DNA of 64,000 nucleotides from an uncultured Acidobacteriota bacterium (GCA_963770895.1 CAVYRF010000002.1:3808001-3872000), one strand, 5' to 3'. Positions 18,224 to 47,000 are shown, numbered from the stretch's first letter. Numbers and translations: made by a program. Notes: generated by a model from the letters alone, not told the origin.

Positions 18224-18227
18224 ATGG

Positions 18228-21531: not shown

Positions 21532-22522
21532 GCACTTCCGATTTCCCAGCGATGCTCCAGGCTTTCTTCACCGAACGCTTGCTCACCCAGCGGCGGGCCA
21601 GCCCGCACACCGTGGCCTCCTACCGCAATACCTTTCGCTTGCTCCTACGCTTCGCCGCTGAGCAGCTCGGCCGCGCCCCCTCCGGCATCTCGCTTACAGA
21701 TCTCGACGCCGCGTTTCTCGGCAAGTTCCTCGACCACCTCGAGCGCGAGCGCGCAACTCCGCTCGCAGCCGCAACGTCCGCCTCGCGGCGCTCCATGCCT
21801 TCTTCCGATATGTCGCCTTCACCGATCCAGCCCACGCGCTGCTTTGCCAGCGAAACCTCGCCATCCCGAGTAAACGCTTCGAGCGCGGGATCGTGGAGTT
21901 CCTCGGCGAAAGCGAGGTCGAAGCTCTCCTCGATGCCCCAGATCTTGCCACCTGGATCGGACGGCGCGACCATGCGCTCCTTCTCGTCGGCGTCCAGACC
22001 GGCCTGCGCGTTTCCGAGTTGACCGCCCTCTGTCATCAAGACGTGACGTTTGGCGCCGGCGCCCACGTCCGCTGCCAAGGCAAGGGGCGAAAGCTCCGCT
22101 GCACGCCCCTGCGCCGCGACGTCATGCGAGTCTTGAAGGCATGGCTGCGTGAGCAGCCGCTGGAACCTGACAGGCCGGTCTTTCCCAGCTCGCGCGGCGG
22201 CCGGATGAGCGAGGACGCCGTCGAGCGACTGGTGGCGAAGCACGTCACCGCCGCGCAACAATGTTGCCCGTCCCTCGTTGGCAAGAAGGTCACACCGCAT
22301 ACGCTTCGCCACACGGCCGCGATGCGGTTGCTCCAAAGCGGAGTGGACCGCAGCGTCATCGCCCTCTGGCTTGGCCACGAGTCCATCGAAACCACCCAGA
22401 TGTACCTGCACGCGGATCTTGGCCTGAAAGAAAAGGCCCTGGCGCGCACGGACTCCTCACAGCGGGCTCCGGGGCGCTACCGTCCGAAAGACACTCTCTT
22501 GACTTTCCTGGAGGGCCTCTGA
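21528..22522 (+). pseudogene. ritC: RIT tyrosine recombinase C, with a 1-bp deletion near 21752
   Basis: HLERER then shifted (G)NSARSRNVRLAALHAFFRY..TGLRVSEL..HTLRHT..WLGHESIETTQMY; could be a sequencing error. Confidence 0.85.
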
Positions 22523-29477: not shown

Positions 29478-30989
29478 TCACGTGGCGATGGATAGGGCGG
29501 GCTGAGCCCGGTGCTGCAGGAGGTCGAGGGCGCGACGGGCCTGGTCAAGAGTCGCGGCGTCGCGCTTGGCAGCATCGCAGAAGAGGCGGAGGGCTGCGAG
29601 CGCCTCGCGGTCCACGCGGCGCGAGGTCAAGATCCAGACCATGCTTGCAGCCAAGTGGCGCACCTCGGCGGTGCGGCCCTGGTCGAGATAGATCAGCGCG
29701 AGCTCCAAGGAGACGATGGCGGCACCGAACGCCTGGCCTTCGTCTTCAGACTGCTTCTTGACCTCCTCGAAGGCGGCACACGCTTCCGCCTGGCGGCCGC
29801 GGCCTGCCGCCACGCGGCCGGTCAGCCAGACGACCTGCATTTGGTCGTGGGCGTTGCCAAGCTCAAGCGCCTGCTGGCGGAGGCGCGGAAGCTGCGCCTC
29901 CACCTCGGCGTAGTGGCCCAGATGGCACCGGCTGACACCGAGATTGAACTCCAGCACCCAGGTCAGGCGAGGGTCATCGTCGGCCGCGATGTGCGGAGCG
30001 GCGTCGTGGAGAGCCGCGATGGCGGCGGTTGCATCGCCTGATAGTTCCAGGGTGTAGGCACGATTAAGGAGGATTCGGGCCGTGGCGCCTGGCGGCGCGA
30101 TCGCGGCGGCGCGATCGAGCAGGTCGAACGCCGGCTGGAACTGGCGGGTGTCGCGGCGAAGCGAGGCTTCGAGATCGAGCAGACGCCATTCCTCAAGGCC
30201 GATGTCACCTACGTCGGCACCCGACCGCCACAGGTTCCAGGCGGCCGTGAACTCTGCCGCAGCCGCGACCAAGTCGCCGGCCACACGCCGGGCATTGCCG
30301 AGGAACGCGCGCGCGTAGCCTTGGAGCCGCAAGCGCCAGCGTTCGCCGCCAGGGACAAGCTGGGCTACCTCAACGGCGAGCTGGGCCAGGTCGAGGGCTG
30401 CGACGGCCCCCTTCGGCGCCTCGCGCGCGCTTTCCTCGCATAGCCTTTCCGCGAAGGCCCAGGTCTGGAGCTCAGGACCCTGCTCGACCAGCCACCGCCG
30501 TTCTGCGGCGGTGCAGGTTGCGATTCGGTCCCAGGCGCGGGCCGCGTCCTCACGATCGGCAGGTGACGGCGGCCCAGGCTCCAGCGTCGCGGCCTCGGCG
30601 GCATCCGCAGCCGCATCGACCCCGGCCAAGACCAAGTCCATCGCCTCACGGATGGCGGTCTCAAGAGCGGCATGGTCCAGCGGTGCGAGATCCTGGGTCG
30701 CCCTGGGTCCGCGATCGTCCCGCGGTCGACCCGCCGCGGTCGACGCCGCCCGTTCACGTGCGGTGCGCAGGACGGGGAGTAAGCGGTGTTCGACCCAGGA
30801 GAGCTCCAGGCCCACGGCGGCGACGATCCGCGCCAGGACGTCCGGAGAGATCGGGTCGCCCGATTCGAAGCGGGAGATCGAGGGCTGGGCGAGCCGGGCT
30901 GCGTCGGCGAGGGTGCGCTGATCCCAGCCGCGGAGGGCGCGCAGCAGAGGGAGGAGTATCCGGGCATCCGCATCTTTATAGGGGGGCAT
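29478..30989 (-). CDS. XRE-HTH + TPR transcriptional regulator (receptor 1, 503 aa)
   Basis: ATG at 30989 after GGAGGAG; LRALRGWDQRTLADAARLAQPSISRFESG HTH followed by TPR-like helices. Confidence 0.85.
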   Translation of the reverse strand: MPPYKDADARILLPLLRALRGWDQRTLADAARLAQPSISRFESGDPISPDVLARIVAAVGLELSWVEHRLLPVLRTARERAASTAAGRPRDDRGPRATQDLAPLDHAALETAIREAMDLVLAGVDAAADAAEAATLEPGPPSPADREDAARAWDRIATCTAAERRWLVEQGPELQTWAFAERLCEESAREAPKGAVAALDLAQLAVEVAQLVPGGERWRLRLQGYARAFLGNARRVAGDLVAAAAEFTAAWNLWRSGADVGDIGLEEWRLLDLEASLRRDTRQFQPAFDLLDRAAAIAPPGATARILLNRAYTLELSGDATAAIAALHDAAPHIAADDDPRLTWVLEFNLGVSRCHLGHYAEVEAQLPRLRQQALELGNAHDQMQVVWLTGRVAAGRGRQAEACAAFEEVKKQSEDEGQAFGAAIVSLELALIYLDQGRTAEVRHLAASMVWILTSRRVDREALAALRLFCDAAKRDAATLDQARRALDLLQHRAQPALSIAT

Positions 30990-31006
30990 GGCGTCAACTC
31001 CTCCGA

Positions 31007-31041
31007 GGCATGTATGCCATATACGGAAAAAGTGTATTTTT
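31007..31041. promoter_or_regulatory. Candidate operator in the divergent regulator/peptide spacer
   Basis: Palindrome GGCAT-GT-ATGCC (31007-18) and AAAAA-N5-TTTTT (31027-41) in an AT-rich patch. Confidence 0.35.
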
Positions 31042-31136
31042 AACCTCTGTTGTCGTCCCGGCGGATGGTCCATGGAGGCGGCCGGGTTCGGGCCAATGTC
31101 GACCGCGAACGGCGGCGCCTCATGAAAGGACTTCTC

Positions 31137-31592
31137 ATGCGTCACCCGATCTCCCGTCGCATCGTCGCCGCTGCCATCCTTGCCCTGGCCGCCTGGGCCA
31201 GCGCACCTCGGTCGCTTAGGGCCGTCCCGGCGTCCGGCTTTGGCATCGTGGCAAGCCAGGATGCCGACTTGTTCGCGCCGGTGCGTCGCTGGATGAGCGC
31301 GATCTGGCCCTGGCACAGCTCCGGCGCTAGCCGAAGCACGGTCCGGAACCCTACCGTTGCGAGGCCGCAGAACGGATGTGGAATCGACCCGAATGGTGGC
31401 CAGCAGTGCACCAACGTCGTCAAGCCGCAGAACGGCTGTGGAATCGATCCGAGCGGCCAGCAGTGCAACAATGTTCTCAAACCGCAGAACGGTTGTGGGG
31501 CGGATCCGAACGGCCAGCCGTGCAGCAATGTCGTCAAGCCGCAGAACGGCTGCGGAATTGACCCTGATGGGCAGCACTGCTCGCATAGCTGA
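31137..31592 (+). CDS. Secreted precursor with four Cys-bracketed DPxG repeats (151 aa)
   Basis: AAAGGA RBS; signal peptide MRHPISRRIVAAAILALAAWA; 4x PQNGCG(I/A)DP(N/S/N/D)G..C. Confidence 0.85.
   Translation: MRHPISRRIVAAAILALAAWASAPRSLRAVPASGFGIVASQDADLFAPVRRWMSAIWPWHSSGASRSTVRNPTVARPQNGCGIDPNGGQQCTNVVKPQNGCGIDPSGQQCNNVLKPQNGCGADPNGQPCSNVVKPQNGCGIDPDGQHCSHS
31362..31580 (+). repeat. Coding tandem repeat, 4 units of 57-60 bp
   Basis: CCGCAGAACGG at 31365, 31425, 31482, 31539; variation in the conserved core is mostly synonymous. Confidence 0.92.
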
Positions 31593-31735
31593 GTGCTGAT
31601 GCCCGAGCCGTCGGATCGGTGCTAAGTGGCGTCTTGCCCCTGTGGCCTGATTGGTGGCGAAGACGTGCCGCAGGTGTCGGCTAGTGTCGTGCCGGCCGGA
31701 GCCCGGTCGAGGGCGCCGCCTTTGCCGGCGTGCGC

Positions 31736-34142
31736 TCACGGCGTGATGAAGCCGAGATGGTGCGAGCGACTGAGCAGGCGCAGGGCCGCGCGCGCCTGTT
31801 CTATTGTGGCCATTTGGCGGACGGCCGCCGCGCAAAAGAGCCGCAGACTGGCGAGGGCTTCGCGCTCGATCCGCTGGGCGACAAGGACCGGGCGCATTTC
31901 CAGCGCCAAGCGGCGCACCTCGGCGAGCCGGCCGTCCTCCAGGTAGATAATCGCTAGTTCGAGAGAGACGAGGGCGCTGGCAAGGTGGTTGCCGCGGGCC
32001 GCAAACTCGTCGCGCACCTCCCCAAAGGCGGCGCTGGCCTCCTGCCTGTTGCCCATTCCAGCCGCGACGCGACCTTGCAACCAGCCGACACGCAGAAGGT
32101 CCAATTCGTTGGCCAACACAAGCGTGAGCTGCCGCAAGATCGGGACCTGAGCTGCTGCTTCGGAGAAGGCGCCGAGATGACAGAGATTGACGCCCATATT
32201 GAAGGCCAGCACCCACTGAAGCCTTGGGTCGCCGGTCTGGCGGACCAAGGGAGCGGCTTCGCTCAGAGCGGCCAATGCTGCGGCCGAGTCGCCCGCCAGC
32301 TCCAAGGTGTAGGCGCGATTGAGCAAGATTCGTCCTGCCGCAGAGCGCGGGGCCATGAGAGCGGCACGGTCGAGGAGATCGAGCGCAGCGGCGAATTGAC
32401 GCGCATCGCGACGCAGGGACGCCTCCAAGTCGACTAAGCGCCACGCCGGAAGGACGGCGGTCGGATCGCCGGCGGCGCCAGCGTTCCAGAGCTGCCAGAC
32501 GGTCTGCCATTCGGCGTCCGCCTGGATGAGGTTCCCCTGGACACGCAGGGCGTTGGCGAGAAACGCCCGCGCATAGCCTTGCAACCGGCTACGCCAGGCG
32601 TCCGAGCCGGCGGCGAGCCCGGCAACCGTGACAGCGAGCTGCGCCAGCTCCAGGGCGGTGTCTGCGCTGTTGGGCGCGGCACGCCGACTTTCGTCGGCGA
32701 GCCGTTCGGCGAGCGCCCAGCTCTGAAACGCCGGGAGGCACTCGACGAGGAGCAGGCGCCGCGAGGGAGCGCAGCCGGCGAGGACCTTCCAGAGCTTGTC
32801 GGTTTGGGCGCGGGCGCGGGCGACGCTGCGGGCGGCGGCTCTGGCCGGCAGGGAGGCTTTTGCCAGGGCGGCGACCTCCACCGCGAGATGCGCCGCGGCC
32901 TGACGCACGATGCGGTCTTCTGCTGGCGTCACGGTGGCAGGATGTGCGGGGATGGCACCACCGGCCGCGGTGGAAGGGGCGAGCGCCGAGATGGTGAGCA
33001 GCACGAGATCGACCTCGGCGGGGGCGTAGCCCATCGCCGCCGACGCCAGAGCTTCGAACCGCCGGCGGGTCAGAGTGCGATTGTCACGCTCATAACCGGA
33101 GACGCTGCTTTGGTGCGCGTCGGCGGCCGCCGCAAGGTCCTGCTGCGTCCAGGCGATGCGCTCGCGGAGCCAGACGAGGGCGATGCGCCAAGGGCGCGGG
33201 AGATCGTGGGGCGAAGCGTCGGTGGTGCCTCGGTCTGGCGTCGTGGCCGCAGCGGGAGGGCACGGGCCCGGACTTCCGGCCGTGTGGGGAGGTGCGGCGT
33301 CTCCGTCGTCGGCGGCCAGGGCGACCTTGTGGGTAGAGCGGCCCATCGCTGCGTACAAGTCGAGCAGGTGGCGCTCGGGGAGGATACCGGCCGGGTCGCC
33401 CGAGACGCCGGCGCGCCAGAGGCGCCAGGCGGTGCGCCATTCGGCAAAGGCGGCGGTCCGGTTGCCCGACACGTTTAGGGCGTCAGCCAGGTAGGCGTGA
33501 GCATAGCCCGCCATCCGGTTGCGCCACGCGGGCGAGCCGACGACGAGGCCGGCCGCCGTTACGGCAAGGTGCGCCAGTTCGAGGGCGGTGGCGACGTCCG
33601 CGGACGCGGCGCGCTGGCTTTCCTGGGCGAGGCGCTCGCAAAGGGCCCAGGTTTGGAATGCCTGCAAGCGCCCGACAAGGAGCCGGCGCTGCGCCTGGCT
33701 GGCGGCGTCAATGCGGAGCCACAGAGGTCCGGCCTTGGCGCGGTCCCGGTCGATGCGGCGCGCGGCAATCCTGGCACGCAGTCTGGGCTGGGCGACAGCG
33801 GCGACCTCGACCGCGAGATGCGCTACGGCTTGGCGCAGGGGACTGGCCGGCAGCGCGGGCGTCGCGACGGCCTTGTCGGCGACGGCTCCGTCGCCCGCGA
33901 TCTCCGGACCGAGTGCCGCAACGGTACCCAGCGCCAGCTCGACCTCGGCAGGGCTGTAGCCCATGGTGGTCTGTAAGGTGCTGGAAGCGGCGGCGGTGCA
34001 GCGGGCGGATCGCCCGTTCATAACACGAAATCTGGGCGTGGGTAATGCCGGCGGCCTGCGCGAGCTGCCGCTGGGTCCAGCCGACGCATTCCCTTAGCCA
34101 GATGAGGGCGATGCTGTCGGATTGGGGGATCGTTCTGGGCAT
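31736..34142 (-). pseudogene. Double-module XRE-HTH/TPR regulator (receptor 2), frameshift near 33970
   Basis: HTH1 WLRECVGWTQRQLAQAAG; shifted into MGYSPAEV; HTH2 WLRERIAWTQQDLAAAAD with a full TPR region. Confidence 0.75.
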
Positions 34143-34717
34143 TCGGTCAGCCCGCCGCGAGCGAGTCAGCCTGGTCGTTTCTGGCCCAAGAGGGCAGCTG
34201 GGTTTGCTCTGGTGCCATGAGCAAGGGTTTGGCCTCCGCATTCGCGACGGTGCGCGGTCAGGCAACAAATCGTCTTCGATGATGATTCTTACGCGAATGC
34301 TCTCGTTGCGCAAGGGCGATCGTGGGCATTCCCGTTGGCCGCGCGGCGCAAGCGGGCTGTGCGGCGGCTAGAAGTTTTCATTCTGTGTATACCTGATTCG
34401 CAGGCATGGCTCTGCGGCACAACTCACAGCGCGACCACCGGCTTTTGGGGCCGCTGGCTTGGTGGACAGGTCCGTGTGGTTGGAGCACCAGTTGAGCTGC
34501 TGCCTCGCGCTGCCTGGCCAACCGACGTCGCTCTCGTACTGAACAGACGGCCAGCGGGTCCGCGTTACGAAATCAAGACGCTTCGCGAGGTATACCGGAT
34601 ACTTTTTTAGGTAGTTGCGAGCGCGCCGGCCTTCTCCTGTTTATCCTGTTTGCGGAGTGAGCCCGCTGGACTGGCTGGTGCGCGACGGTGCGCCGCTCTC
34701 CTTTGGAGGACCATCGC

Positions 34718-35287
34718 ATGGGTTTGCAGGCAATTCCCACCCTGGAGACCGAGCGGCTCAGGCTGAGGCCGTTGCGCCGCGCCGACTTCGACGATTACGC
34801 GGCGCTACACGCCGATCCCGAGGTGATGCGCTACTTCGCCCAGGGCATCCTGTGGGACCGCGCCCGCTCGTGGCGACACATGGCCTGCATGATCGGTAGT
34901 TGGCAGCTCACCGGCTGCGGCATGTGGGCAGTCGAGGAGCGGGCGAGCGCTGGCTTCTGCGGCCTGATCGGATTGGTGGAGGCCGAAGGGTGGCCCGGTT
35001 GCGAGCTGGCGGGCCGCCTGGCTCCCAGGTTCTGGGGCCGCGGCTATGCCATCGAAGCCAACCTTGCTGCGCTGGGCCACGCCTTTGTCGGCCTGGGCAA
35101 ATCGTCGGTCATCAGTCTGGTGGATCCCGGGAACCAGGCGGCGGTGCGCCTGGTCGAGCGCACAGGGGAAAGCTTCCAGCGCCGGATGCAGCATGAAGGT
35201 CGCGAGGTGCTCTGCTTCGGCATCGACGCTGCGACGTATTTCGCCACAACCCCGGTCGCGGCCTGCTGCTCGCGGGCCGCGGGCTGA
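34718..35287 (+). CDS. GNAT family N-acetyltransferase (RimJ/RimL-like)
   Basis: PTLETERLRLRP, DPEVMRY, FWGRGYA, GNQAAVRLVER; GGAGGA RBS. Confidence 0.9.
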   Translation: MGLQAIPTLETERLRLRPLRRADFDDYAALHADPEVMRYFAQGILWDRARSWRHMACMIGSWQLTGCGMWAVEERASAGFCGLIGLVEAEGWPGCELAGRLAPRFWGRGYAIEANLAALGHAFVGLGKSSVISLVDPGNQAAVRLVERTGESFQRRMQHEGREVLCFGIDAATYFATTPVAACCSRAAG

Positions 35288-35321
35288 ACGCTGCGGATTT
35301 CTTGGGTAGCTTCTCAAACCG

Positions 35322-35846
35322 ATGCGACACCTTGACACATCATGCCGCTGCGATATGCATGCTCGAGCCCATCGAATACCTGCGGCCGAACTTGAAGGTG
35401 GTCCGGGAGAAGGCGAAGCGCCGCCGAGCGAGGGTGCGCCGGACGCCAGGGCGGGCCGAGGACGCTGGGTTTGGAACGAGGGCGACTGGTTCCGGGAAAC
35501 GCACCTGGTGTGGCTCGACGATCCCAGGGATCGCAACACCGCCCGGCAATTTGCAAAGCTTTTCTACAACCTGGTTGTGGAAAACAAACACGCGGAAGGG
35601 CGGAAAGGTTCCATGACGCGCGCCGAGCTGGCGGCAGCGTTGGCCGACCTCCCGTACCTGGAGCGGTACCTGGCCCACGTAGCGCTGGAGCGGGAGGTGT
35701 CCGGTCTGTCCGAGGAGGATGAGAGTCTGGCCCGTTTTGCGGGCCGTTTGGTTGCGAAGATCAGTCCGATCACCGCGGCGATGCAGAATCGACTCAAGCC
35801 TAAAAGATCGTGTTTACGTGCAGGGCGACGGCGGGGAGAACGATGA
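35322..35846 (+). CDS. Hypothetical helical protein
   Basis: Coding-like C-terminal half (FRETHL..AELAAALADLPYLERYLA); ATGA overlap with the next gene; start uncertain. Confidence 0.5.
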   Translation: MRHLDTSCRCDMHARAHRIPAAELEGGPGEGEAPPSEGAPDARAGRGRWVWNEGDWFRETHLVWLDDPRDRNTARQFAKLFYNLVVENKHAEGRKGSMTRAELAAALADLPYLERYLAHVALEREVSGLSEEDESLARFAGRLVAKISPITAAMQNRLKPKRSCLRAGRRRGER

Positions 35847-37210
35847 AGCGCCGTCCAACCTCAGCCCCGGAGGCAAGTGAGGCAAGGACCGTCGCTTCTT
35901 TTCCTGTGAGGACATCGCCCATGATGCGAGACCGCAGTTCCGGGAGCCGCGCAGGCTTCCCGGGCGAGAGATCCCGGTACGTCTTGCTGGCTGACGGACG
36001 CGACCTTGGAGCCGGGATTCCCATTGCCGATCTGGCCGCCAGAGCACAGGAGGCCGGAGAGCTAAGCGAGGAGCTGATGGGCATGGGGCGGGCGGAGCGC
36101 GTGAAGGCGGCGCGGCAGGAGAAACGCTTCCATCGCGCCGCCTTGCTGACACTGCTCAACCTGGAAGCCGAGAGCGCGCTCTTGCAACCGCGGGGCCGCG
36201 ACGTGGGCGAGCAGGAGGCTGAGGTGGCGACGATCCTGGCCGCGTGCCTGGTGCACGAGCCGCGGGGCGACGCCGTTCCCCCGGGGGCGCTGGCACACTG
36301 GCTGCTGGGCAAGGCCCGCCTTGAGCGTGCCGACCTGGAGGGGGCGGTGCGGTCGTTTCAGGGGATGCTGGCGTTCGCCGGCGACCCGGTGGTTACGAGC
36401 GAGGCAAAGGCGCTGGCCGCCGCCGGCTGGGCGCAGGTGGATCAGGCGATGGGCGCCTGGGATGAAGCGGTGGCGCACTTCCGGCTGGCGGGCTCCGCCT
36501 TTGCCGGGATTGGGGCGACCCTGGCCGCTGCCGCGTGCCTGGCCGAGATCGGCTTTACGCTGCTTACCACCAAGGACCTGCTGCTGGGACGGCGCAACTT
36601 GCAGCGCGCGTGGAGGCTGCTCGATACGGAGCTCGCCCCGACGATGGCGGCGCGCGTCGCGCTGGGCTGCGCGGAGATCGAAGCGCAACTGGGCGAGGGG
36701 GCGGAGCGCCAATGGCTGGCGCGCGCGCAGGGCTTGTACGGGCTGCGGACACAGCCCTGTGAAGACCTGGCCCGGGCCTGGACCGAAGGCCGCATCGCCG
36801 CCGCGGCGGGCCGCCATGGCGAGGCCCTGGTGCTGCTGGAACGGGCGCAGGCGGGACTGGTGGTGCAGGGGAGCCTGGGCGAAGCGGTCAGGGTCTCCTG
36901 CGACCAGCTTTCGCTGCGGTTGGCAGCCGGGCAGCCGTTGCAGGCCGACGCCATCGCCGACGCTCTGGGCAGCGCCTTCCCCGATGCCGGCGCAGCCTGG
37001 GCGCGCGCGATGCTGGACCTGGCGGACATTGCCGCGGCGCAGGGACGGGATGCGTACCAAATCGCCGTCGACGTGCTGCTCGAGCGCTTGCCGGCCCATG
37101 AGCCATTGCCCGGCCGCCCCGATGCGTTGACGCCCCGGCGAGCTCTTACTGACCGGCTGCTGCGGCACCGGGGTGAGTTCGAAGACCCGCTGGGTGGCGC
37201 AGAGTCGTGA
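35843..37210 (+). CDS. TPR-like protein without an HTH
   Basis: Helical repeats; AWTEGRIAAAAGR echoes the receptor WLxGRVAAGxG motif. Confidence 0.65.
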   Translation: MKRRPTSAPEASEARTVASFPVRTSPMMRDRSSGSRAGFPGERSRYVLLADGRDLGAGIPIADLAARAQEAGELSEELMGMGRAERVKAARQEKRFHRAALLTLLNLEAESALLQPRGRDVGEQEAEVATILAACLVHEPRGDAVPPGALAHWLLGKARLERADLEGAVRSFQGMLAFAGDPVVTSEAKALAAAGWAQVDQAMGAWDEAVAHFRLAGSAFAGIGATLAAAACLAEIGFTLLTTKDLLLGRRNLQRAWRLLDTELAPTMAARVALGCAEIEAQLGEGAERQWLARAQGLYGLRTQPCEDLARAWTEGRIAAAAGRHGEALVLLERAQAGLVVQGSLGEAVRVSCDQLSLRLAAGQPLQADAIADALGSAFPDAGAAWARAMLDLADIAAAQGRDAYQIAVDVLLERLPAHEPLPGRPDALTPRRALTDRLLRHRGEFEDPLGGAES

Positions 37211-37340
37211 GCGACCGCGACATGGTGGCGAGGTTTGCCATGCGGATGAGGGCCACGATCGGCGTGATGGTTGCGGCGGTTGGGGCAAGGCTCTGGGCGA
37301 GCACTGCGGGTGGACCTGCACAGCAACGTGGAGGCAGGGG

Positions 37341-37483
37341 ATGAGCCGTAAGGTATCCCATCCCCCGCTTTACGAACTCCAGGCAATGGCTGTGGGACGG
37401 CTGTCCCGCGAGGACCGTGCGCGGGTGGTCCGCATCTGCTGAGAGGGTGCAACAAGTGTGGCGCCGAGGTGTTCAGGGCCTAG
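37341..37483 (+). pseudogene. Mini zinc-finger (anti-sigma-like) ORF, frameshifted
   Basis: HPPLYELQAMAVGRLSREDRARVV / HLLRGCNKC with a 1-bp slip at ~37432; GGAGG RBS. Confidence 0.5.
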
Positions 37484-37824
37484 CCGAGCCTCGCGAATGC
37501 GCGGCGGGAGCGGAAACGGAAGAACTTTGACCAAGGCTCGTGAGGGGCGGCGAGGCGCGGAGCCGAAGCGGCGCGCCACATCCGGCAACGCTGCGCGTGG
37601 CGCCGTGTGACTCGCCGCGCCAGGAAGAAGAGCGCTCCCGATTGCCGCATCGCGACGACCTTTCTTGAGAGGACCCAGTGGATGGCTTCAACGTACAGCG
37701 ATCGCCTGCAAGCCGTGCCGCTGGCGCCGAAGGGCCAGCACCTGGTGCGTCCCCTGCGCGTGCGCGCCGACCGGCTGTCGCGCCCTTGCGGCGCGCTCGA
37801 AGGCTCGATGGAAGCTACGGGGCT

Positions 37825-38052
37825 ATGAGCCATCGACCGCGAGGTGGGTCTGGCAGCGGATCGCGAGGCGAAAGCGGAACCGTTGATCGATCGCAAAACG
37901 AGGCGCCTTTTCACCCCTCGGCGGAACAGATAGAGGCATTGCTCTTCGGCAGGATCTCGCAAAAGGACGCAGCACAGATTGTGCAGCACTTCATCAGGGG
38001 TTGCGATCAATGTGCGGCTTTGACCATGTCCATCCTGCGACCCAGGCGCTGA
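37825..38052 (+). CDS. Mini zinc-finger (zf-HC2-like) protein
   Basis: HPSAEQIEALLFGRISQKDAAQIVQHFIRGCDQC. Confidence 0.55.
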   Translation: MSHRPRGGSGSGSRGESGTVDRSQNEAPFHPSAEQIEALLFGRISQKDAAQIVQHFIRGCDQCAALTMSILRPRR

Positions 38053-38479
38053 CCTCGGAAGGTATGAACGGCCGACCGGTGGTGCATGCTATCGGCCGAC
38101 TCTCAGTGCGTTGCCCTGCGTTTCTGCCACAGGCCGCAGCTCTTGGGCAACGTGCTCTTGGGTACGTCCAAACTGGCAAGGTGCAGCTGGCGGGCAGATT
38201 CGCGGAGCGGGCAGGCCGGAACGCGCGGCTGGCGCTCGGCGATACCGATGCTGGCGAGATAGAAGCTAAGAGGTGCAACCATGGCGATCGCAAGCTGGCG
38301 CGCCGCCATTTGGAACATGCCTTTCGTCAAAACATGCGATGGACATGTCGTTGCCGGCGGTGCAGCATCGTTTCTGCGTGCAAATGTGAAAGCTGTACCA
38401 ATGTGCGCTGGCTGGATACTTCGATCCCTAGCGGAAGGCTGGACGGCGAGGAGCAGGGATGCTGTGGAGGGTAAGCCGG

Positions 38480-40075
38480 GTGCCGGTTCGTGACGAGATG
38501 CAGATGCTGGCTCGCCTGCTGCGTGCGATCCGCGGCGTCAGCCAGGATGAGATGAGTGCCGCGGCGTCGATCGACCGCAGCACGATCAGCCGCTATGAAA
38601 CGGGCGACATGGTCCCTTCCCGGGCACACTTGGCGCGCCTGACTGGCGCGGCAGGGCTGTCGCTCGCGTTTGCCGAATCCGTGCTGTTGCCGGTGGTTCG
38701 CTTGGTGTTGGAACCCGCCGCGGCCAGGTGGCAGCGGGTCCCGGCGCCGGCCGATAACGGTGCGGCCACCTTGGAGCAGGCTCTGCTTGGCACGGTACGG
38801 GCTGGGTTTGCCACGTTGGAGGCTGGCCTGTCGGTAGGCAAAGCGGCCGATCCCCATGGTCCCCCCGCGGTCGAGGATCGACTTCCGGTTGCCGAGCTAT
38901 GGGCGGAGATCCGGTCCTGTCCGCCCGCAGAGCGGCGCGACCTGATCGCGCGGCGCTCCGGCTTTCACACCTGGGCCTTCTGCGCAAAGCTGTGCGAAGA
39001 AAGCGCACGAGCTGCCGCGCACGATGCCCGACACGCACTCGACCTGGCGCAGCTGGGATTGCTGACCGCGCACCACGCGCCCGGAAGCACTGCGGGGAAG
39101 GCCTATATTGAGGGCTACGCCTGGGCCTTCGTGGGCAACGCGCTGCGGGTTGGGGGCGATTTGCCGGCGGCCGATGCCGCGTTTGCCATGGTGGGGACAC
39201 TCTGGCGGGCATCCCCGGGCCAGGCGGCTGGCGTGCTTGCCGCTTGGCGTGTCCCGTATCTGGAGGCAGCACTGCGGCGCGATCAGTGCAACGTGCGGCG
39301 GGCGCTCGATCTGCTGGATCGAGCCCGCGAGATGGCGCCGCGCGAGGCAACCGGGCGCATCCTGGTGTGCAAGGCGACCGTGCTGCAGCGATCCGGCGAG
39401 ATTGCGGCCGCACTCGCGACCCTGGGCGAAGCCGAGCGTGGCATCGACGCCGCGGCACAGCCACGGCTCGACTTGCTCCTGCGACACGACCAGATCGCGT
39501 GCCTTTGCCATCTCGGGCGATACCGCGAGGCAGAGGTCCAGCTTTGCGGGGTGGACCCGGCACGTCTTTGCGCGGACAACGACCCGGACCTACAATTCGC
39601 CTGGCTGAAGGCCCGCATCGCCGCGGGTCGAGGGCGTCGGCAAGAGGCTCGGACGGGGTTGGAGACGCTGCGGGCGGCGTACGCAGCACAGAAGCGCGCG
39701 CACGAGGTGGAGCTGGTCTCGCTGGAGCTGGCCATCATCTACCTGGACGACGGTCGGCTGGGGGAGGTCTGCGCCATGGCCAACTCTATCTCCTGCATTC
39801 TCGGCTCGGAGCGCATCCACCGCGAAGCTCTGGCAGCGCTGCGCCTTTTCTGCGAAGCCTCAGGGATCGAAGGCGGTGCCCGCGCCCAGGTTCAAAGGTT
39901 GCGCGCCCACCTGGATCGCGCCCGCCAGGATCCGCGGCTGATTTTCGGCTCGTCCCTGCCATCTGTGGCCCAGCAGCGGAGACTAATAAGGTGTTGGCGC
40001 ATCACAGCATCAACAGAAACGCAGCAGAAGGGGCCAAAAAGGCCCAGAGAGGAGTTCTGTGTATGCGGTTGGTGA
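38480..40075 (+). CDS. XRE-HTH + TPR regulator (receptor 3)
   Basis: LRAIRGVSQDEMSAAASIDRSTISRYETG; FHTWAFCAKLCEES, GYAWAFVGNALRVGGDL, VSLELAIIYL, REALAALRLFC; GTG after GGAGG. Confidence 0.85.
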   Translation: MPVRDEMQMLARLLRAIRGVSQDEMSAAASIDRSTISRYETGDMVPSRAHLARLTGAAGLSLAFAESVLLPVVRLVLEPAAARWQRVPAPADNGAATLEQALLGTVRAGFATLEAGLSVGKAADPHGPPAVEDRLPVAELWAEIRSCPPAERRDLIARRSGFHTWAFCAKLCEESARAAAHDARHALDLAQLGLLTAHHAPGSTAGKAYIEGYAWAFVGNALRVGGDLPAADAAFAMVGTLWRASPGQAAGVLAAWRVPYLEAALRRDQCNVRRALDLLDRAREMAPREATGRILVCKATVLQRSGEIAAALATLGEAERGIDAAAQPRLDLLLRHDQIACLCHLGRYREAEVQLCGVDPARLCADNDPDLQFAWLKARIAAGRGRRQEARTGLETLRAAYAAQKRAHEVELVSLELAIIYLDDGRLGEVCAMANSISCILGSERIHREALAALRLFCEASGIEGGARAQVQRLRAHLDRARQDPRLIFGSSLPSVAQQRRLIRCWRITASTETQQKGPKRPREEFCVCGW

Positions 40076-43000
40076 AGCCCCTGATTATGGTCATTGTGGC
40101 GAGCGTTGCGTTTGCCTCGGTGAGCCATGGCCAGACATGCGTGACCGCGGCCAGGGTGGGGCCGCCCGAGCCGGGGCGAACGTTTGCTGAACCGCTCAGG
40201 CCGGTAGGCGAGCCCAACGTAGAGGAGACCCGCGAGCTGGCGGCGGCGATCCGCACTTATCGCGCCGCTGTGGATATCGAGGCGGTACAGCCGGTGGTCG
40301 AGTTCCTGCAACAACATCCCGATTCGGCATGGAAGCCGTCCCTGTGCGCTAACCTGGCGGTGCTCTATCGCCACACCGGCTATCTGGACCACGCCCTGAC
40401 GATGGCCGAAGAGGCGTGGCGGCTGACCGCCACGTCCACCGACCCCGAAGCGCGAAAGATCGCCGATGACGCGCTGGCAACTCGTATCGAGGTAACCTCG
40501 GCCCTGGGCCGCACGGCCGAGCTGGCGGCGCTGCTCGACGCAGTGCGTGATCGGCCGCTGAGCGGGCACGCGGCAGAGATGGTGTCGGGCGCGCGGTCCA
40601 GTCTGTGGCAGATGCGCCACGATCCGGGCAGCTCCTTCCGCTGCGGCCCGCTGGCCATCGAGCGCGTCGCCGCGGTCCTCCATCCGGGAGCTCTAGCCGA
40701 CCCGCGCGTGCAGCAGTACCGTTCGACCAGCCAGGGCACTTCGCTGGCCGAGATGGCGCGGCTAGCCCAGACGACCGGCTTGGATTTGCAGGCGGTCAAA
40801 CGCCAGCCCGGCTCGCCCATCCCGGTGCCCGCGGTGGTGCATTGGAAGGCCGACCACTTCGCGGCGCTCGTGGCGCAGCAGGGCGACCGCTACCTGGTCA
40901 AGGACATGACGTTCGGCGACGACCGCTGGCTCAGCCGCGCCGCGGTGGAAGAAGAGTCGTCGGGCTATCTGCTGGCCCAGACCCCAAAGGCACTGTCGGA
41001 TGGCTGGCGGCGGGTGACCGCCGCGGAGGCGGCAGCGGTCCGCGGGCGAGGCGCGAGCGCCAATCCCAACCCCGGAGCGACCACCCCGGGCGACCCCAAA
41101 AAGCCGGCGCTGTGCGGCGGCAACGGCATTGGCATGCCGGTCTACAACTTTCACACCGCGGTGGTGAGCCTGAACGTCACCGACGCGCCGGTCGGTTATC
41201 AGCCGCCACGCGGACCGGCGATGCGGTTCGGCATCACCTATAACAGCCGCGAGGACTTTCAGCCCTCCACCTTCACCTTCACCAACCTGGGCTCGCGCTG
41301 GAGCTTCGACTGGCTGTCGTATGTCGAAGACGACGACCCGAACGGCAACGGCAACACCATCCGCGTCGCGGAGTTGGGTGGCGGTTCGTACATCCTGCCG
41401 CAGACCTCGACGACGTCCGGGTACCAATACGGGCCCAATGTGCGCGGCACGCACGAAACAGTGACCCGTATCTACCAGACGAACACCAACACCACCATCG
41501 GCTTCGCCCGGCAGTTTCCCGACGGTTCGCAAGAGATCTACCAGCTTTCCGACAATGCCGCAATGATGCGGAAGTATTTTCTGACCGCGGTGACCGACAC
41601 GCTGGGCAATACGATCACGCTCAACTACGACGCCGCCACCACGCGCCTGTTGTCGATCACCGATGCCCTGGGCCAGACGACGACGCTCACCTATGGGCTG
41701 GCGGGCGACATCTATAAGGTGACCGCGGTCACCGATCCGTTCGGGCGTCAGGCGCTCTTCCAATATTCCGGTGGCGAGCTGCAAAGCGTCACCGACGCGG
41801 AAGGCATGACGTCCTCGTTTGCGTATGGGCGGCCCACCGTGCCGGCGCCGGCGGCGCCCTATTGCGTGAACTTCGGCTACGACCTGGTGTACCCCGTGCC
41901 GGCGGATTTCATGAATGCAATGACCACGCCGTACGGCACGACGACCTTCGTCATGGGCGAGGAGCCACCGTGCGTCGACAGCGACCTGGGCAATATCCGC
42001 TGGCTGGTGGCGACCAACCCGCTGGGCAACCAGGAGCGCATCGAGTTCACCCACGAGGCTCAGAACGTCCCCGAGACCACCACCGAGCCGATCCCCGCCG
42101 GCTTCGGCAATGAAAATCTGGCGTACCGCAACACCTATTATTGGAATCAGACGGCGATGGAGCAGTACAGCGACGGCGATCCCAATCGCTATCTGAACGC
42201 GACTTACACCTTTCACTGGCTGCGCGACTTTTCGGAAGGCGGGACGGCAGCGTCTTCGATTCCGGGATTTGTCCAGCCGCTGGGCCAGCGCCGGACCTGG
42301 ATGGGCTACCCCAACATGCCCGGCGACAGCGACCAGGGCAGCCTTTCGGAGCCGACGGTCACCGCGACGGTGCTCGACAGCGGCCAGACCCGTGCATACA
42401 CCTACGCCTACAATTCTTCTGGCCGGCCGTATAACTACACCGACCCGACAGGGCGCACCTACAGCTACGAGTACGCGGCCAATGGGATCGATATGATCCG
42501 GGCGCTCGCCACACAGTTGGATGGCGGCGGTCCTGGCATCACCTGGGCCGGCGAGCAGCTGGCCACCCTGACTTACAACTCGCAGCATGAACCGCTGACC
42601 TACACCGACTATGCGAACCAGCGGTCCACGTTCACATACAACGGCTTCGGCGAGATGACCTCGGTACAGCGACCGGATGGGGTGACCACCAACTTCACCT
42701 ACGACGGCCACGGTTTTCTGACTCGCAAGGCGATCGCCGGCACCTCCTATCAAGAGACCTTCACCTACGATTCAGCCGATCGTCTGCTCACCTGGACGTC
42801 GACCGACGGCTACACCTTGACGTTGAGCTACGACGCGCTCGACCGTCTCACCCGCATCACCTATCCGGACGGCACCATGGACCAGGTGATCTACGACAAG
42901 CTGGACGTCGTGGCGTATCAGGATCGAATGGGACGCGTCACCACCTACGCCTACGACGCCGCCGATCGGCTGGCGTCGGTCACGGATCCGGCGGGCCGCA

Positions 43001-44097
43001 CCACGACCTATTCCTGGTGCGGCTGTGGAGCGCTGTCGCAGGTGGCGGACCCGCGTGGCGTTCTGACCACCTGGATGCTCGACGGCCTCAACCGGGTGAT
43101 CGGCAAGCAGGTCAACGGCGCCACGGTGGCGCTGTTCACCTACGACGACGCGGGTAGGTTGATCCAGCGCACCGACGGGCTGGGGCAGATCACCAACTAC
43201 AGCTACACCGTCGACGACCGGCTGGCCGGGGTCGGCTATCAGAACAGCGTCCATACGACGCCCGGCGTGCAGTATTTCTACGACCAGTACTATCCGCGCC
43301 TGGCCATGATGACCGATGCGTTCGGTTCGACGACCTACACCTACAACCCGGCAGGCAGCGTCGGTGCGGGGCAGGTTGCGAGCATCACCGCGCCGGCTCC
43401 CGAGCACACGATCATATTCCAGTACGATGTCGACGGCCGGCGGATCGGCAAGACGGTCGACGGGTTGGCACAGACGCAGACCTACGACAGCCAGGATCGC
43501 CTGAGCAGCTGGGAAAACTCGCTCGGTACCTTCACCGCCACCTACGCCGGATCGTCCAACCGGATGGCGACGTTGTCCTACCCCAACGGCCAGGGGGCGG
43601 TGTTCTCCTATCTCGGTGGCACGCAAGACTTCCGGCTGTCGCAAGTCGTCTGGGGGTCGACGGGGAACGGCCCCAACCTGTCGCAGTTCGGCTATTCCTA
43701 CGATGCCGCCCACCAGCAGGTCGTTGGCCTCTCCTGGTTCGACATCAACAGCCCGACGGGCCGGTTCTTCAACTTCACCTACGACCCCGCGCAGCAGCTG
43801 ACCGCGCGCCAGCAGACGACGAATCCGGCGCAGTCGCCGGTGACAACGCAGCATTCCTACACGTTCGGCTACGACGCGTCGGGCAACCGCACCAGCGAGA
43901 CGTTCGACACCGCGCTGTCGACCGCCGCCTACGACGGCGCCAACCAGCTGATCCGGCTCGACACCGGCCTTAGCCTTCAGGCGCAGGCGGCGATGCAGCA
44001 GCTGAGGGCTCATTCGTCGGCGGTGCCACCACCAAGTCCAGCCGGAGCCGCCCAGGCGGCTTCAGACAGCGTCAGGGAGGGCAGCCATGAGAACTGA
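40063..44097 (+). CDS. Secreted RHS/YD-repeat protein A with a C39 peptidase domain, no RHS core
   Basis: ATG after GAGGAG; signal peptide; RCGP..GTSLAEM..VVHWKADHF..KD; many YD repeats; ends YDGANQL. Confidence 0.88.
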   Translation: MRLVKPLIMVIVASVAFASVSHGQTCVTAARVGPPEPGRTFAEPLRPVGEPNVEETRELAAAIRTYRAAVDIEAVQPVVEFLQQHPDSAWKPSLCANLAVLYRHTGYLDHALTMAEEAWRLTATSTDPEARKIADDALATRIEVTSALGRTAELAALLDAVRDRPLSGHAAEMVSGARSSLWQMRHDPGSSFRCGPLAIERVAAVLHPGALADPRVQQYRSTSQGTSLAEMARLAQTTGLDLQAVKRQPGSPIPVPAVVHWKADHFAALVAQQGDRYLVKDMTFGDDRWLSRAAVEEESSGYLLAQTPKALSDGWRRVTAAEAAAVRGRGASANPNPGATTPGDPKKPALCGGNGIGMPVYNFHTAVVSLNVTDAPVGYQPPRGPAMRFGITYNSREDFQPSTFTFTNLGSRWSFDWLSYVEDDDPNGNGNTIRVAELGGGSYILPQTSTTSGYQYGPNVRGTHETVTRIYQTNTNTTIGFARQFPDGSQEIYQLSDNAAMMRKYFLTAVTDTLGNTITLNYDAATTRLLSITDALGQTTTLTYGLAGDIYKVTAVTDPFGRQALFQYSGGELQSVTDAEGMTSSFAYGRPTVPAPAAPYCVNFGYDLVYPVPADFMNAMTTPYGTTTFVMGEEPPCVDSDLGNIRWLVATNPLGNQERIEFTHEAQNVPETTTEPIPAGFGNENLAYRNTYYWNQTAMEQYSDGDPNRYLNATYTFHWLRDFSEGGTAASSIPGFVQPLGQRRTWMGYPNMPGDSDQGSLSEPTVTATVLDSGQTRAYTYAYNSSGRPYNYTDPTGRTYSYEYAANGIDMIRALATQLDGGGPGITWAGEQLATLTYNSQHEPLTYTDYANQRSTFTYNGFGEMTSVQRPDGVTTNFTYDGHGFLTRKAIAGTSYQETFTYDSADRLLTWTSTDGYTLTLSYDALDRLTRITYPDGTMDQVIYDKLDVVAYQDRMGRVTTYAYDAADRLASVTDPAGRTTTYSWCGCGALSQVADPRGVLTTWMLDGLNRVIGKQVNGATVALFTYDDAGRLIQRTDGLGQITNYSYTVDDRLAGVGYQNSVHTTPGVQYFYDQYYPRLAMMTDAFGSTTYTYNPAGSVGAGQVASITAPAPEHTIIFQYDVDGRRIGKTVDGLAQTQTYDSQDRLSSWENSLGTFTATYAGSSNRMATLSYPNGQGAVFSYLGGTQDFRLSQVVWGSTGNGPNLSQFGYSYDAAHQQVVGLSWFDINSPTGRFFNFTYDPAQQLTARQQTTNPAQSPVTTQHSYTFGYDASGNRTSETFDTALSTAAYDGANQLIRLDTGLSLQAQAAMQQLRAHSSAVPPPSPAGAAQAASDSVREGSHEN

Positions 44098-47000
44098 GCG
44101 TCGGGTGGAAGCCGTGCGCGGCCGGTGGCTGCCGTTCGTCCTGGTGTGCGCCGTCATCGTTGCCGGCGGCTCGATCCGGCCGGCAGGTGCCCAGGAAACC
44201 GTCACGATCAGCGGACCGACCACTTTGAACCAGACCGAATATGCGACCTACAACGGAATCGACAATCCCGGTGCCTACGGGGTCACCTGGTCGATTTACC
44301 CATCGGCAGGAGTCACCCTGAGCAATTTCACCAATACGTCGGTCCAGGTCACTGCCGGCGCCACGGCCGGCGTGTACACCCTGACCGGCACTGGCGGTGA
44401 CGGCACCACGGGGCATCTCAACATCACCGTTCCAGGCCCTCCGGTGACCTCGGTGAGCCCGCTGACTGCCGTGGTCGCTGCCGGCCAGACCATCGATTTC
44501 TACGCCAGCGTCGTCAACGCGAGCTCGCAGGCATACGCTTGGTGGACGGATGATCCGAGCGGTTGGGCGCTTGGGGGTGGTCAAGCGGATGCTGGCCCCG
44601 TCGGCCAGTTCTACCACAACGCAGGCCGGTCGGGAGGGACGTTCCACGTCTATGTCGAAAACTTGGAAAACAACCTCTCCGGCGTCGTGGCCGTTGCGAC
44701 CGTGCAGGTGGTCGATGTCGCCGTGGCGCCGGCGGCCGTGACCGTCCTGCCAGGCACCTCGCGGCAGTTCCTGGCCGACGTGACTGGCAGTCAGCAAAGC
44801 GTGCAATGGTCCTCGACGATACCGGGAGCAACGTTTGCGAACACCGGCCTGCTGCAGGTGCCGGCGGGCGCCGCCGGAGGGTCCTATACCGTCACGGTAC
44901 GGACCGTCGGCAATCCGGTGGCGACCAGCACCGCCGCCGTGACGGTGGTGGCGTCCATGCCGGTGAGCGGAGTCGCCATCTCGCCGGCGCGGTCGGTGCT
45001 CGATTCCGGGCAGCAGGCGCCCCTGTCGGCGGTCGTCGAAGACCCCAACGGCGAGCCGCATCCCAACCAGGCGGTGACCTGGTTGGTTGCCGGCCCGACG
45101 CCGGCGTCGATCGCCACCAATGGCCTGTTCACCGCCCCTGGCGTGCCCGGTGTCTACATCGTCACGGCAACCTCGGTGACAGATCCCACCAAGTCGGGCA
45201 CGGCGACGATCACGGTGGGTGAGGATCTGATGATTCTGCCGTCGTCGGCCAGCCTTGCACCAGGCGCCAGCCAGTCCTTCACCGCCCAGGTTAGCGGGGT
45301 GACGAATCCCACCGTCACCTGGAGCATCGAAGAGGGGGCGGCGGGCGGCAGCATCTCGACGGCCGGGCTCTACACCGCGCCCGCGGCGTCGGGGACCTAT
45401 CACGTGCTGGCGGCCGCCACCGCGGCGGGTGGTGGGACGGTGCAGGGCCTGGCGACGGTGACGGTGAGCGCCGGTCCGCGTGTCGGCATCGCCGTCGCAC
45501 CTGCGGAAACCACCGTGGCGGCGGGCGGCATGCAGCAGTTCACCGCTGCCGTCACCGGCGCCGCCGACACCGGTGTGGTGTGGTCCGCGTCGGCAGGCTC
45601 GATCGATGCGACCGGGCTTTTCACCGCTCCTGCGACCGACGGCACCATCACCATCACTGCCACCAGCCATGCCGATTCGCAGGTGCAGGCATCGGCAACC
45701 GCGGTCGTCACGGTTCCCGGCCAGGGGCAGGCGTTCCAATACGATGCCAACGGCAATGTCCTATCCGACGGCACCCGCATCTACGAATGGGACGCGGAAA
45801 ACCGGCTGACGGCGATCAACATCGGCACCCAGCGCAGCCAGTTCGGCTACGACGGGCTGGGGCGGCGCGTGCTGATCACCGAATTGAGCAACGGCGCGGT
45901 GGTCACCAGCCGGCACTACATTTGGCTGGGCGACGAAATCGTCGAAGAGACGGACGCCACCGTCGACGCGACGGGAACAGTCACCGGGCCAGGCAACTAC
46001 GACTCCCTCAACTGCAACCAGGTCGCCGGCTGGGCCTGGAACCCAGCCCAGCCCAATACGCCGGTCAGCGTCAGCATCGAATCCGGCGCCACCACCATCT
46101 CGACGGTGCTGGGCAACAACTATCGCAGCGACCTCAAGCTCGCCGGCGCTGGCAATGGCAATCACGGCTTCACCTATCCGCTGCCAGCGCAGTTCAAGAC
46201 TGGCACGGCGCAATCGGTGACGCTCTCCATCACCGGCACGACGATATCGCTCGGCACCCGCACCGTGACCTGTCCCGCGCCCAGCTTCTCCGGTTCGTTC
46301 GACCTAGCCACATGCACCCAGCTCGCCGGTTGGGGGTGGGACGCCAACGAGCCCAACGACCCGATCAACGTTGACATCTACGACGGCACCACCCTGATCG
46401 CCACCGTCCTTGCCAACACTTTACGCCAGGACCTGCTCAACGCCGGCATTGGCAACGGCGCACACGGCTTCTTCCTCCCCACGCCTGCCGCGCTCAAGAC
46501 CGGCACCGCCCACACCATCACCCTCAAAGCCGGCGGCACGCCGACGGTCATCGGCGCCCCACAAACGCTGACCTGTTCCAGCGCCAACTTCGGCGGGTAC
46601 TTCGACACTGCCGATTGCACCCAGCTGGTCGGTTGGGCCTGGGATGCCAATCAGCCCCATGCCGCCCTCAACGTGGACCTCTACGACAACGGCGCCCTGC
46701 TGGCCACTATCCCCGCCGCCAACTTCCGCCAGGATCTGCAGAATGCCGGCAAGGGCAACGGCGATCACGGTTTCGCCTACTCTTCGCCAGCCCTCTACTC
46801 CGGCACCACGCACAGCCTGTCCATCAACTATGCGGGCACCACGATCCCCCTGGCCAGCTCGCCGAAGACCATTACCTGCCCGACCGAACCGATCCTCACC
46901 CGCTTCTTCCTCGGAGGCATGCAGTCCGGCGGCGCCAATTATTACTTCTCCTACGACCACCTGGGCAGCGTGCGCGAAGTCACCGATACCAGTGGCAACG

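Follow-up and report, generated by a model that had tools for sequence, protein, structure and literature searches.

A lineage-wide module of HTH/TPR regulators and small exported peptides in Thermoanaerobaculia that may work like RRNPP signalling

A 64,000-nucleotide stretch of DNA from an uncultured soil acidobacterium (GCA_963770895.1, CAVYRF010000002.1:3808001–3872000; hereafter the window, G000:C2:3808001–3872000 in an 8.16-Mb genome of three contigs) carries a module in which a small gene for an exported peptide precursor lies between the genes of two large regulators, R1 and R2; a third regulator of the same family, R3, lies a few kilobases away. Judged by the names of its homologues, the organism is a member of the Thermoanaerobaculia, Acidobacteriota. 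Our preferred reading, to which we give a probability of roughly 0.58, is that the module is a lineage-wide one that works like RRNPP peptide signalling but uses a separate receptor family found in Thermoanaerobaculia; we infer the binding, export, processing and re-import of the peptide, and likewise signalling between cells by the window module. What the analysis establishes directly is the paralogy of the receptors, their helix-turn-helix (HTH) domain, their tetratricopeptide repeat (TPR) fold, the coupling of receptor and peptide genes, the C-terminal placement of the peptide core and the taxonomic range. A bolder version, which we put forward tentatively and at somewhat less than even odds, is that the module represents a peptide language of RRNPP type, the first outside Bacillota, in which soil Thermoanaerobaculia would run dozens of parallel pheromone channels per cell, each HTH/TPR receptor set having its own hydrophobic-DPxG peptide (disulfide-looped in one family), with signals crossing the outer membrane and with either an independent origin or a divergence from the Gram-positive systems so deep that kinship can no longer be recognized. 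An RRNPP-like receptor–propeptide system in a diderm had been proposed in a first-pass annotation of the window, and it finds in silico support in the gene coupling, the HTH and TPR fold, the C-terminal core, a complex prediction and the presence of Omp85 proteins.

The peptide gene (31137–31592, plus strand; protein P0002) was defined by translation and by its paralogues in the genome. It encodes 151 residues with a signal peptide, a conserved W..L..IWPW pro-region and four tandem cores, and, as the first-pass annotation had described it, is divergent from R1 across a 147-bp spacer and convergent with R2. The N terminus is basic and then hydrophobic, as in signal peptides, which were called throughout by a simple heuristic alone, without SignalP. 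A six-frame regular-expression scan of the genome places the four Cys-flanked cores, of the form C-G-(I/A)-D-P-x-G-x(2–3)-C, at 31377–31409, 31437–31466, 31494–31523 and 31551–31580 on the plus strand. They read CGIDPNGGQQC, CGIDPSGQQC, CGADPNGQPC and CGIDPDGQHC, in a unit KPQNGCG(I/A)DPxGQxC that occurs four times; the first-core peptide, linear or disulfide-closed, is NGCGIDPNGGQQC, and its shorter version is GIDPNG. P0002 matches no family in Pfam or NCBIfam. The genome holds three close and at least 12 more distant paralogues, every one beside or near receptors, and these precursors vary: some have a single core at the very end (for example, ...CVAGMDPNGMCK) and some have no Cys (for example, ...SAPDPYGG). 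What the precursors of all these families have in common is D-P-x-G preceded by a hydrophobic residue (I, M or L), close to the C terminus, with the core ending 0–6 residues before the stop in most precursors; the Cys bracket and the 2–4 tandem copies are the style of the window organism's bacterial family. The n-region of the close precursors (31137–31200 in the window, and paralogues L001, L002, L003 and L006) reads S-R-R-(I/L) followed by hydrophobic residues, which we take to resemble the twin-arginine export motif; the RR motif is absent from many other members of the peptide family.

Spurious open reading frames (ORFs) are abundant in GC-rich genomes, and the peptide ORF could in principle be one of them. 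We regard this as having a negligible probability. The peptide model matches all 81 searched genomes of the bacterial family, up to 25 times per genome, with signal peptide, pro-region and cores conserved, and an AAAGGA resembling a ribosome-binding site stands directly before the ATG at 31137 and is conserved in four close cassettes; the conservation already refutes a chance frame.

The genes flanking the precursor belong to one family, and the claim that the region holds three paralogous XRE-HTH/TPR regulators stands, on the strength of BLASTP identities, Pfam HTH matches and a modelled TPR superhelix. R1 (29478–30989, minus strand; P0001) is a full-length receptor of 503 aa, delimited by its ORF and translation, and R3 (38459–40075, plus strand, a slightly longer frame than first annotated; P0004) is an orphan receptor of 538 aa, near which neither the peptide hidden Markov model (HMM) nor the signal-peptide heuristic detected a peptide gene. 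R1 is 42% identical to R3 over 487 columns (E 5e-87) and 57% identical to R2 over 344 columns (E 5e-107), with a second BLASTP segment of 46% identity over 133 columns further upstream in R2. Pfam finds an HTH in each: HTH_3 in R1 (31.8 bits, cut-off 23, E 1.5e-7) and in R2 (23.7 bits, above the cut-off, at residues 285–328 of P0003), and HTH_31 in R3 (33.6 bits, cut-off 27). Profile matches to the PDB chains HipB, ClgR, C.BclI and 434 repressor support an XRE-type, lambda-repressor-like HTH. The TPR signal in the three sequences is weak (Pfam TPR_6, E 0.05), and PF13424, PF07719 or PF00515 is found in many receptor homologues. The shared receptor motifs listed at the outset reappear in the consensus of 84 homologues, which contains FQxWAL..ERLC.ES, QGYAWAFVGNA.RV, EWRLLDLEASLRRD, VSLELA and REALAALRLFC.

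R2 had been annotated as a single regulator at 31736–34142. It is a paralogous HTH/TPR protein as described, but one of two modules, in the order HTH and partial TPR body, then HTH and full TPR body, and its first HTH is out of frame. Module 2, a full receptor convergent with the peptide gene, occupies 31736–33229 (minus strand, boundary approximate), as delimited by BLASTP to R1 and its HTH_3 match; module 1, a short form consisting of an HTH and the first part of the TPR body and delimited by the second BLASTP segment, is fused upstream of it at 33230–34142 (minus strand). The interval 31736–34142 measures 2407 nt and is therefore not a single open frame in the window: the minus-strand frame 31736–34021 encodes 761 aa, and the first HTH sits upstream of it in another frame, 33708–34313. 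A paralogue of 810 aa, P0018, has the same order of HTH, partial TPR, HTH and full TPR entirely in frame, and where the comparison with it needs a multiple of three the window has 7 nt. At position 33972 the window carries one base more than the short-read contigs of all three soil-metagenome runs compared (one study), so the break is probably an assembly error or a strain variant rather than the mark of a dead gene. Double receptors fused in tandem also occur among the library representatives P0130, P0131, P0132 and P0136 (1090–1159 aa, two matched stretches each), which are fused as R2 is but consist of two full modules.

Receptor and peptide genes are coupled almost without exception. The genome holds about 51 receptor pieces by tblastn and at least 16 peptide genes by a six-frame motif scan, the peptide HMM run over 83,542 ORFs and the signal-peptide heuristic, and the ten best HMM matches among those ORFs all lie beside receptor paralogues. 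The R1–peptide–R2 cassette recurs at C2:5554602, C2:1899930 and C1:2037892 with 53–67% protein identity. Of the 23 small, signal-like ORFs that lie no more than 600 bp from a receptor, 16 contain DPxG, compared with 31 of 932 elsewhere in the genome, so the association exceeds chance. The same holds in other genomes, in which all 29 of the best peptide loci have a receptor-family ORF within 1.5 kb (at least two in 23 of them) and 20 further loci, picked from lower-ranking matches and not randomly, each hold one as well (49/49 in total). Approached from the other side, of 80 loci centred on receptors in GTDB species representatives, 75 have a peptide gene no more than 2.5 kb away, and at least two of the five others are short loci with cut flanks. 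The adjacency of DPxG-peptide ORFs and receptors, proposed at the outset as a check on the signalling hypothesis, is thus confirmed from both directions.

Gene order within these loci is also regular. In 70 receptor–peptide pairs, namely those whose receptor covers the putative peptide-binding groove, the two genes are convergent in 50 cases, divergent in 15 and in tandem in 5. The peptide gene's most constant partner is a convergent receptor of full length, and many divergent partners are short forms that comprise the HTH and roughly the first 250 positions of the profile. All of these forms are present in the window, with R1 divergent and full-length, module 2 of R2 convergent, and a short form fused before module 2.

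The AlphaFold2 model of R1, built from an alignment with 84 homologues (pLDDT 89.8, pTM 0.73), lays out an HTH, a long linker with a disordered stretch at residues 93–101, and then about 20 helices. In a Foldseek search of the PDB with this model, LGN/Pins TPR domains rank first (E 1.2e-5; TM score by target up to 0.65), followed by peptide-bound RapJ (4gyo; TM 0.66 by target, rmsd 5.3) and, further down, by phi3T Rap with pheromone (8rst, 8rtc) and pLS20 Rap, the sequence identity to Rap being 10–14%. The modelled fold is that of a peptide-binding TPR superhelix. A structural comparison with RRNPP receptors had been proposed at the outset; the match to Rap proteins and the TPR fold agree with a likeness to them, but LGN ranks above Rap. 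A fold search of BFVD with R1 returned generic giant-virus TPR proteins and no arbitrium or Rap match, and the profile of 84 homologues, compared with PDB sequences, retrieved chains of HTH proteins and of generic TPR proteins, none of the best 60 of 119 being an RRNPP chain.

A complex prediction places the peptide core in the groove of this superhelix. With R1 residues 140–503 and precursor residues 75–151, both supplied as our own alignments, the prediction scored 0.64 (runs of 0.69, 0.64 and 0.10), compared with 0.03 for the best of three controls, so that the co-folding of TPR domain and core suggested by the first-pass annotation came out in favour of binding. Of 80 solved complexes 58 reach the score mark applied, as do 2 of 110 mismatched pairs; these counts hold only roughly here because our own alignments were used. 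Contact agreement among the runs was at least 0%, and the partner pLDDT was 32–39. The predicted contacts fall on precursor residues 75–92, that is, on the first core, with I83, D84, N86 and G87 predicted against R1 residues 188, 191, 232, 235, 236, 272, 273, 309, 312, 344–353 and 385; N232, R235 and V236 belong to the GNAxRV motif. The predicted interface columns are more conserved than those elsewhere in the domain (mean entropy 1.30 versus 1.62 bits, permutation P = 0.018). The prediction supports binding of the core in the conserved TPR groove of the receptor. On a quick receptor tree the x of DPxG switched between small-polar and bulky at least five times, the kind of turnover expected of pherotypes.

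The control region of 147 bp that separates the divergently transcribed R1 and peptide genes (30990–31136) contains conserved blocks in an alignment of four paralogous spacers. Palindromes had been reported in it, and they exist, as one pair of 16-nt arms with 75% complementarity and an A5-N5-T5 element, but they are weak, and the stronger feature is a conserved 21-bp AT-rich box, GGAAAAAGTGTATTTTTAACC (A5-N5-T5; 31025–31045), a candidate operator or promoter element. The box is identical or has one mismatch in the four close cassettes, which are its sole matches in the genome at up to four mismatches, each 28–42 bp from the end of receptor homology. An A5-N-T5 palindrome occurs upstream of peptide genes in 2 of 122 regions compared with 8 of 2000 control pieces and is therefore not general. 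A looser AT-rich element is more widespread, TTTTCC being present in 33 of 122 upstream regions versus 65 of 3000 controls, and AT-rich elements such as GAAATTTC recur about 100–120 nt upstream of other peptide genes. A scan of 30800–31900 found no sigma-70 consensus sites and no intrinsic terminators, and the RNA fold of the peptide–R2 spacer has a z score of −1.26.

Receptor homologues are named Thermoanaerobaculia or Acidobacteriota, and the 80 receptor loci all come from metagenome-assembled genomes (MAGs) labelled Thermoanaerobaculia, Thermoanaerobaculaceae or Acidobacteriota. Receptor matches occur in 38 of 41 genomes of relatives, often 20–37 per genome. In sister families of the same order (five genomes, four families), a signal-peptide ORF bearing DPxG accompanies the receptor at 18 of 30 loci; of these 18 ORFs, 11 carry just one core, 2 show flanking Cys, and 8 stop 0–1 residues after the motif. 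At class level the peptide model, built from Cys-type peptides and blind to the linear type, matched 5 of 151 genomes, namely the window genome, three of its family and one marginal match inside a 753-aa frame. In a phylum sample of 201 genomes, with seven candidates scored per genome, three had a receptor at E ≤ 1e-15, all of the same order, and none was found outside the order at that threshold. In a library of 50%-identity representatives we found 663 receptor relatives at E ≤ 1e-30 and 2470 at E ≤ 1e-10. Five Omp85-family matches are present in the window genome, as in diderms. In the Protein Atlas, HTH/TPR clusters of about 455 aa, with Candidatus Dormiibacterota as their commonest phylum, scored 0.92 against R1.

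Put together as a signalling circuit, the module would work as follows. The 151-aa precursor would be exported through its N-terminal signal peptide and cut into short peptides around the hydrophobic-D-P-x-G core, and the Cys-bracketed cores of the window family would probably be closed by disulfides in the periplasm. The peptides would leave and re-enter the cell, or re-enter from the periplasm, through an Opp/Dpp-type permease; a route for re-import exists in that the genome holds two SBP_bac_5 (Opp/Dpp-type) binding-protein genes. Inside the cell, the core is predicted to bind within the concave groove formed by the TPR domains of R1 and R2, facing the invariant residues N232, R235, V236, N349 and W388, and binding would alter the action of the HTH on the R1–peptide control region with its AT-rich box. 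The targets would be the module itself and probably also the co-travelling GNAT gene and HTH-less TPR paralogue described below, and pherotypes among modules may be set by the variable x of DPxG and the residue before D.

Several points weigh against this reading. A peptide signal of a diderm must cross the outer membrane twice, and a disulfide loop would be reduced in the cytoplasm. The common RRNPP gene order is co-directional, whereas the usual order here is convergent, with a second regulator divergent. Eukaryotic LGN heads the Foldseek matches, so the fold points to a TPR protein of the peptide-binding kind and not to RRNPP as such, and the receptors match no RRNPP-specific family, the hits in Pfam and NCBIfam being to an HTH and, weakly, to TPR_6. 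Of the three complex runs one failed (0.10), the fold of the peptide partner is itself uncertain, and the pass may partly reflect remembered TPR–peptide complexes, which are in the training data. The peptide–receptor covariation that the first-pass annotation had led us to expect did not appear: 3 of the 20 columns most informative on the class of x lie in the interface, against a background of 42 of 356 (P = 0.43), and the loss of R305 follows clades and not the class of x. About half of the genome's receptor genes, R3 included, come without a detected peptide gene, and the relatives are all uncultured MAGs.

Some of these points would also suit the small protein being the target of the flanking regulators and not their ligand. 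It would then be an antimicrobial, adhesive or metal-binding disulfide-loop peptide, and the receptors would sense some other cytoplasmic cue. Regulators commonly adjoin their targets, so adjacency alone does not decide between the two roles; repeated Cys loops are characteristic of secreted effector peptides, and the negative covariation result and the many receptors without a peptide gene point the same way. We nevertheless judge this explanation unlikely. The complex prediction puts an invariant core in an invariant groove with controls at 0.03 or below; what is conserved across families is merely a C-terminal motif of 4–5 residues, with or without Cys, which suits a ligand better than a folded effector; and two, often three, receptor-type genes per peptide gene would be a heavy apparatus for plain regulation of a product.

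Less probable still is a private, cell-autonomous circuit in which the receptor binds the unexported precursor, or the cell's own periplasmic peptide after re-import, and so reports the state of export or of the envelope and not cell density. The outer membrane would hinder exchange between cells, the n-region of the close paralogues is twin-arginine-like, and the predicted binding involves a segment still within the precursor, all of which such a circuit would accommodate. The many core variants per genome, however, fit the discrimination of signals and would not be needed by a housekeeping sensor, and the RR motif is absent in many family members.

Further genes of the window travel with the receptor family. 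A GNAT acetyltransferase gene (34688–35287, plus strand; Pfam Acetyltransf_3, E 8.9e-31) has three close paralogues in the genome (C2:492575, C2:4634751 and C1:1693583, a count that leaves out a distant match on C3 with 29% identity), each within about 400 bp of a receptor-family gene, and a role for it in peptide modification is conceivable. Next to it, P0005 (35810–37210, plus strand) is an HTH-less, remote paralogue of the receptor TPR domain (hhalign probability 95.3%, E 2.2e-8, 305 columns) that reads GKARLE in place of the groove motif GNAxRV. It has about eight paralogous loci in the genome (tblastn, 11 further rows), at least six of which also hold receptor-family genes.

Two RHS genes, both identified by domain search, lie downstream of R3: the product of the first (40150–44097, plus strand) combines a signal peptide with a C39-like peptidase domain, and that of the second (44087–47683, plus strand) has Ig-like domains. 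The first-pass annotation had raised the possibility that the receptors control this toxin operon. R3 lies 74 bp upstream of the C39-RHS gene. The genome holds seven paralogous C39-RHS operons with 63–83% protein identity, and a receptor stands directly upstream of one of the seven, the window copy alone. By blastn, the DNA homology among the RHS copies starts at 40145–40173, or at 39974 in one copy, so that the last ~100 bp of R3 are the upstream flank of the RHS cassette; the contact between R3 and RHS therefore reads as a cassette junction and not as a regulon, and we rejected receptor control of the operon on these two grounds.

The surroundings had also been described as a mobile island. 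A tRNA-Lys gene (18148–18223) is followed by two tyrosine-recombinase genes (19283–20590 and 21662–22522), GC content falls from about 0.72–0.75 to 0.60–0.70, and an ISAZ013-type DDE transposase gene (49498–50703, minus strand; Pfam E 2.4e-136) lies farther on. Together these features make the region island-like, and 18148–22522 is likely to be the boundary of an integrated island. The modules themselves, present in 81 of 81 family genomes with many copies each, are by that count a trait of the lineage and not island cargo. Towards the end of the window, 56589–61280 (plus strand) encodes 1563 aa with four Glucodextranase_B repeats, three CBM96 domains, Big_13 and CarboxypepD_reg, probably a large surface or secreted carbohydrate-binding protein. 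Another gene, 51988–55092 (plus strand), encodes 1034 aa with an N-terminal signal peptidase S26 domain followed by RamC_N, protein kinase and LanC-like domains, the architecture of a class III/IV lanthipeptide synthetase with a fused peptidase.

This last gene bears on the idea that the repeats are cores of a ribosomally synthesized and post-translationally modified peptide (RiPP), such as a lanthipeptide or thioether peptide, matured by an island enzyme of the RamC/LanC type. Multi-core precursors containing Cys are common among RiPPs, and the synthetase lies 20 kb downstream. We consider the idea very improbable and rejected it: the cores show no pattern of the Ser/Thr residues that such enzymes need, and the synthetase, besides its distance, has no paralogue near the other cassettes. 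Moreover, no modifying enzyme adjoins any cassette, both flanks being receptor genes in most loci, and the precursors of sister families mostly lack Cys (flanking Cys in 2 of 18).

The papers that we searched treat the pairing of a peptide signal with a cytoplasmic receptor as a trait of Gram-positive Bacillota and their mobile elements, and RRNPP(A) is described there as a system of Bacillota, their plasmids and phages (PMC10075063, PMC12700828, PMC11343458). The literature that we searched gave no description of RRNPP in Acidobacteriota or other diderms, although supplements may list candidates outside Bacillota, and quorum-sensing papers on Thermoanaerobaculia, by title and the start of the abstract, held nothing on such a system. 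The papers listed on RRNPP-like systems all dealt with Bacillota, and the one paper that linked RRNPPA with diderms concerned plasmid mobility. If the signalling reading is true, a system of the same logic in a soil-abundant, almost uncultured diderm phylum would widen that picture. Its scale is large: single genomes carry dozens of modules, and the relatives form hundreds of clusters at 50% identity (the 663 at E ≤ 1e-30). It would offer a handle on the social behaviour of Acidobacteriota and a large natural set of orthogonal receptor–peptide pairs with a very short conserved core. The hypothesis is testable with synthetic peptides and purified domains, without growing the organism.

The closest known systems are those of RRNPP(A): PlcR–PapR, NprR–NprX, Rgg–SHP, PrgX, AimR–AimP and Rap–Phr. 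Like them, the module has a putatively cytoplasmic receptor in which an N-terminal HTH of the XRE type precedes a TPR superhelix; all RRNPP(A) subfamilies except Rap have the HTH. Like them, it has an adjacent small gene for an exported propeptide, as judged by the signal-peptide heuristic, with a conserved core at or near the C terminus, where RRNPP pheromones lie; and tandem cores, orphan receptors, many paralogous modules per genome and a predicted peptide site in a concave groove are further points of likeness. The differences begin with the receptors, which have no sequence match to RRNPP families, so that by sequence comparison the receptor is not a member of RRNPP(A). They are also larger, at about 500 aa and about 10 helix pairs. 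The peptide gene here usually converges on one receptor gene and has another, for a short or a full form, in divergent orientation; the core is hydrophobic-DPxG, bracketed by Cys in the window family; and HTH-less and two-module fused forms occur. Finally, the host is a diderm acidobacterium, whereas the range described in the papers searched is Bacillota and their mobile elements (PMC10075063, PMC9765709, PMC12700828).

Two other systems share single features. The eukaryotic LGN/Pins TPR domain is likewise a superhelix whose inner groove binds extended peptides, but it belongs to a scaffold without an HTH, and its likeness to R1 is one of fold class only. The WhiJ-type XRE regulators of Streptomyces have undergone a large paralogous expansion in which each stands beside a small partner gene, a likeness by description only: the partners are small cytoplasmic DUF397 proteins that are not exported, and the regulators have no TPR body.

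Rap–Phr resembles the module in the Foldseek matches and, in the forms with duplicated pheromones of phi3T and SPbeta-like phages, in the several pheromone copies per propeptide. P0005 extends the parallel, as an HTH-less TPR paralogue with the same architecture as Rap; Rap differs in having a 3-helix N-terminal domain and in acting on response regulators and not on DNA. Propeptides holding several pheromones are reported in two papers (PMC9765709, PMC11343458), and the tandem copies seen in the window precursor have their precedent in Rap–Phr (PMC11343458).

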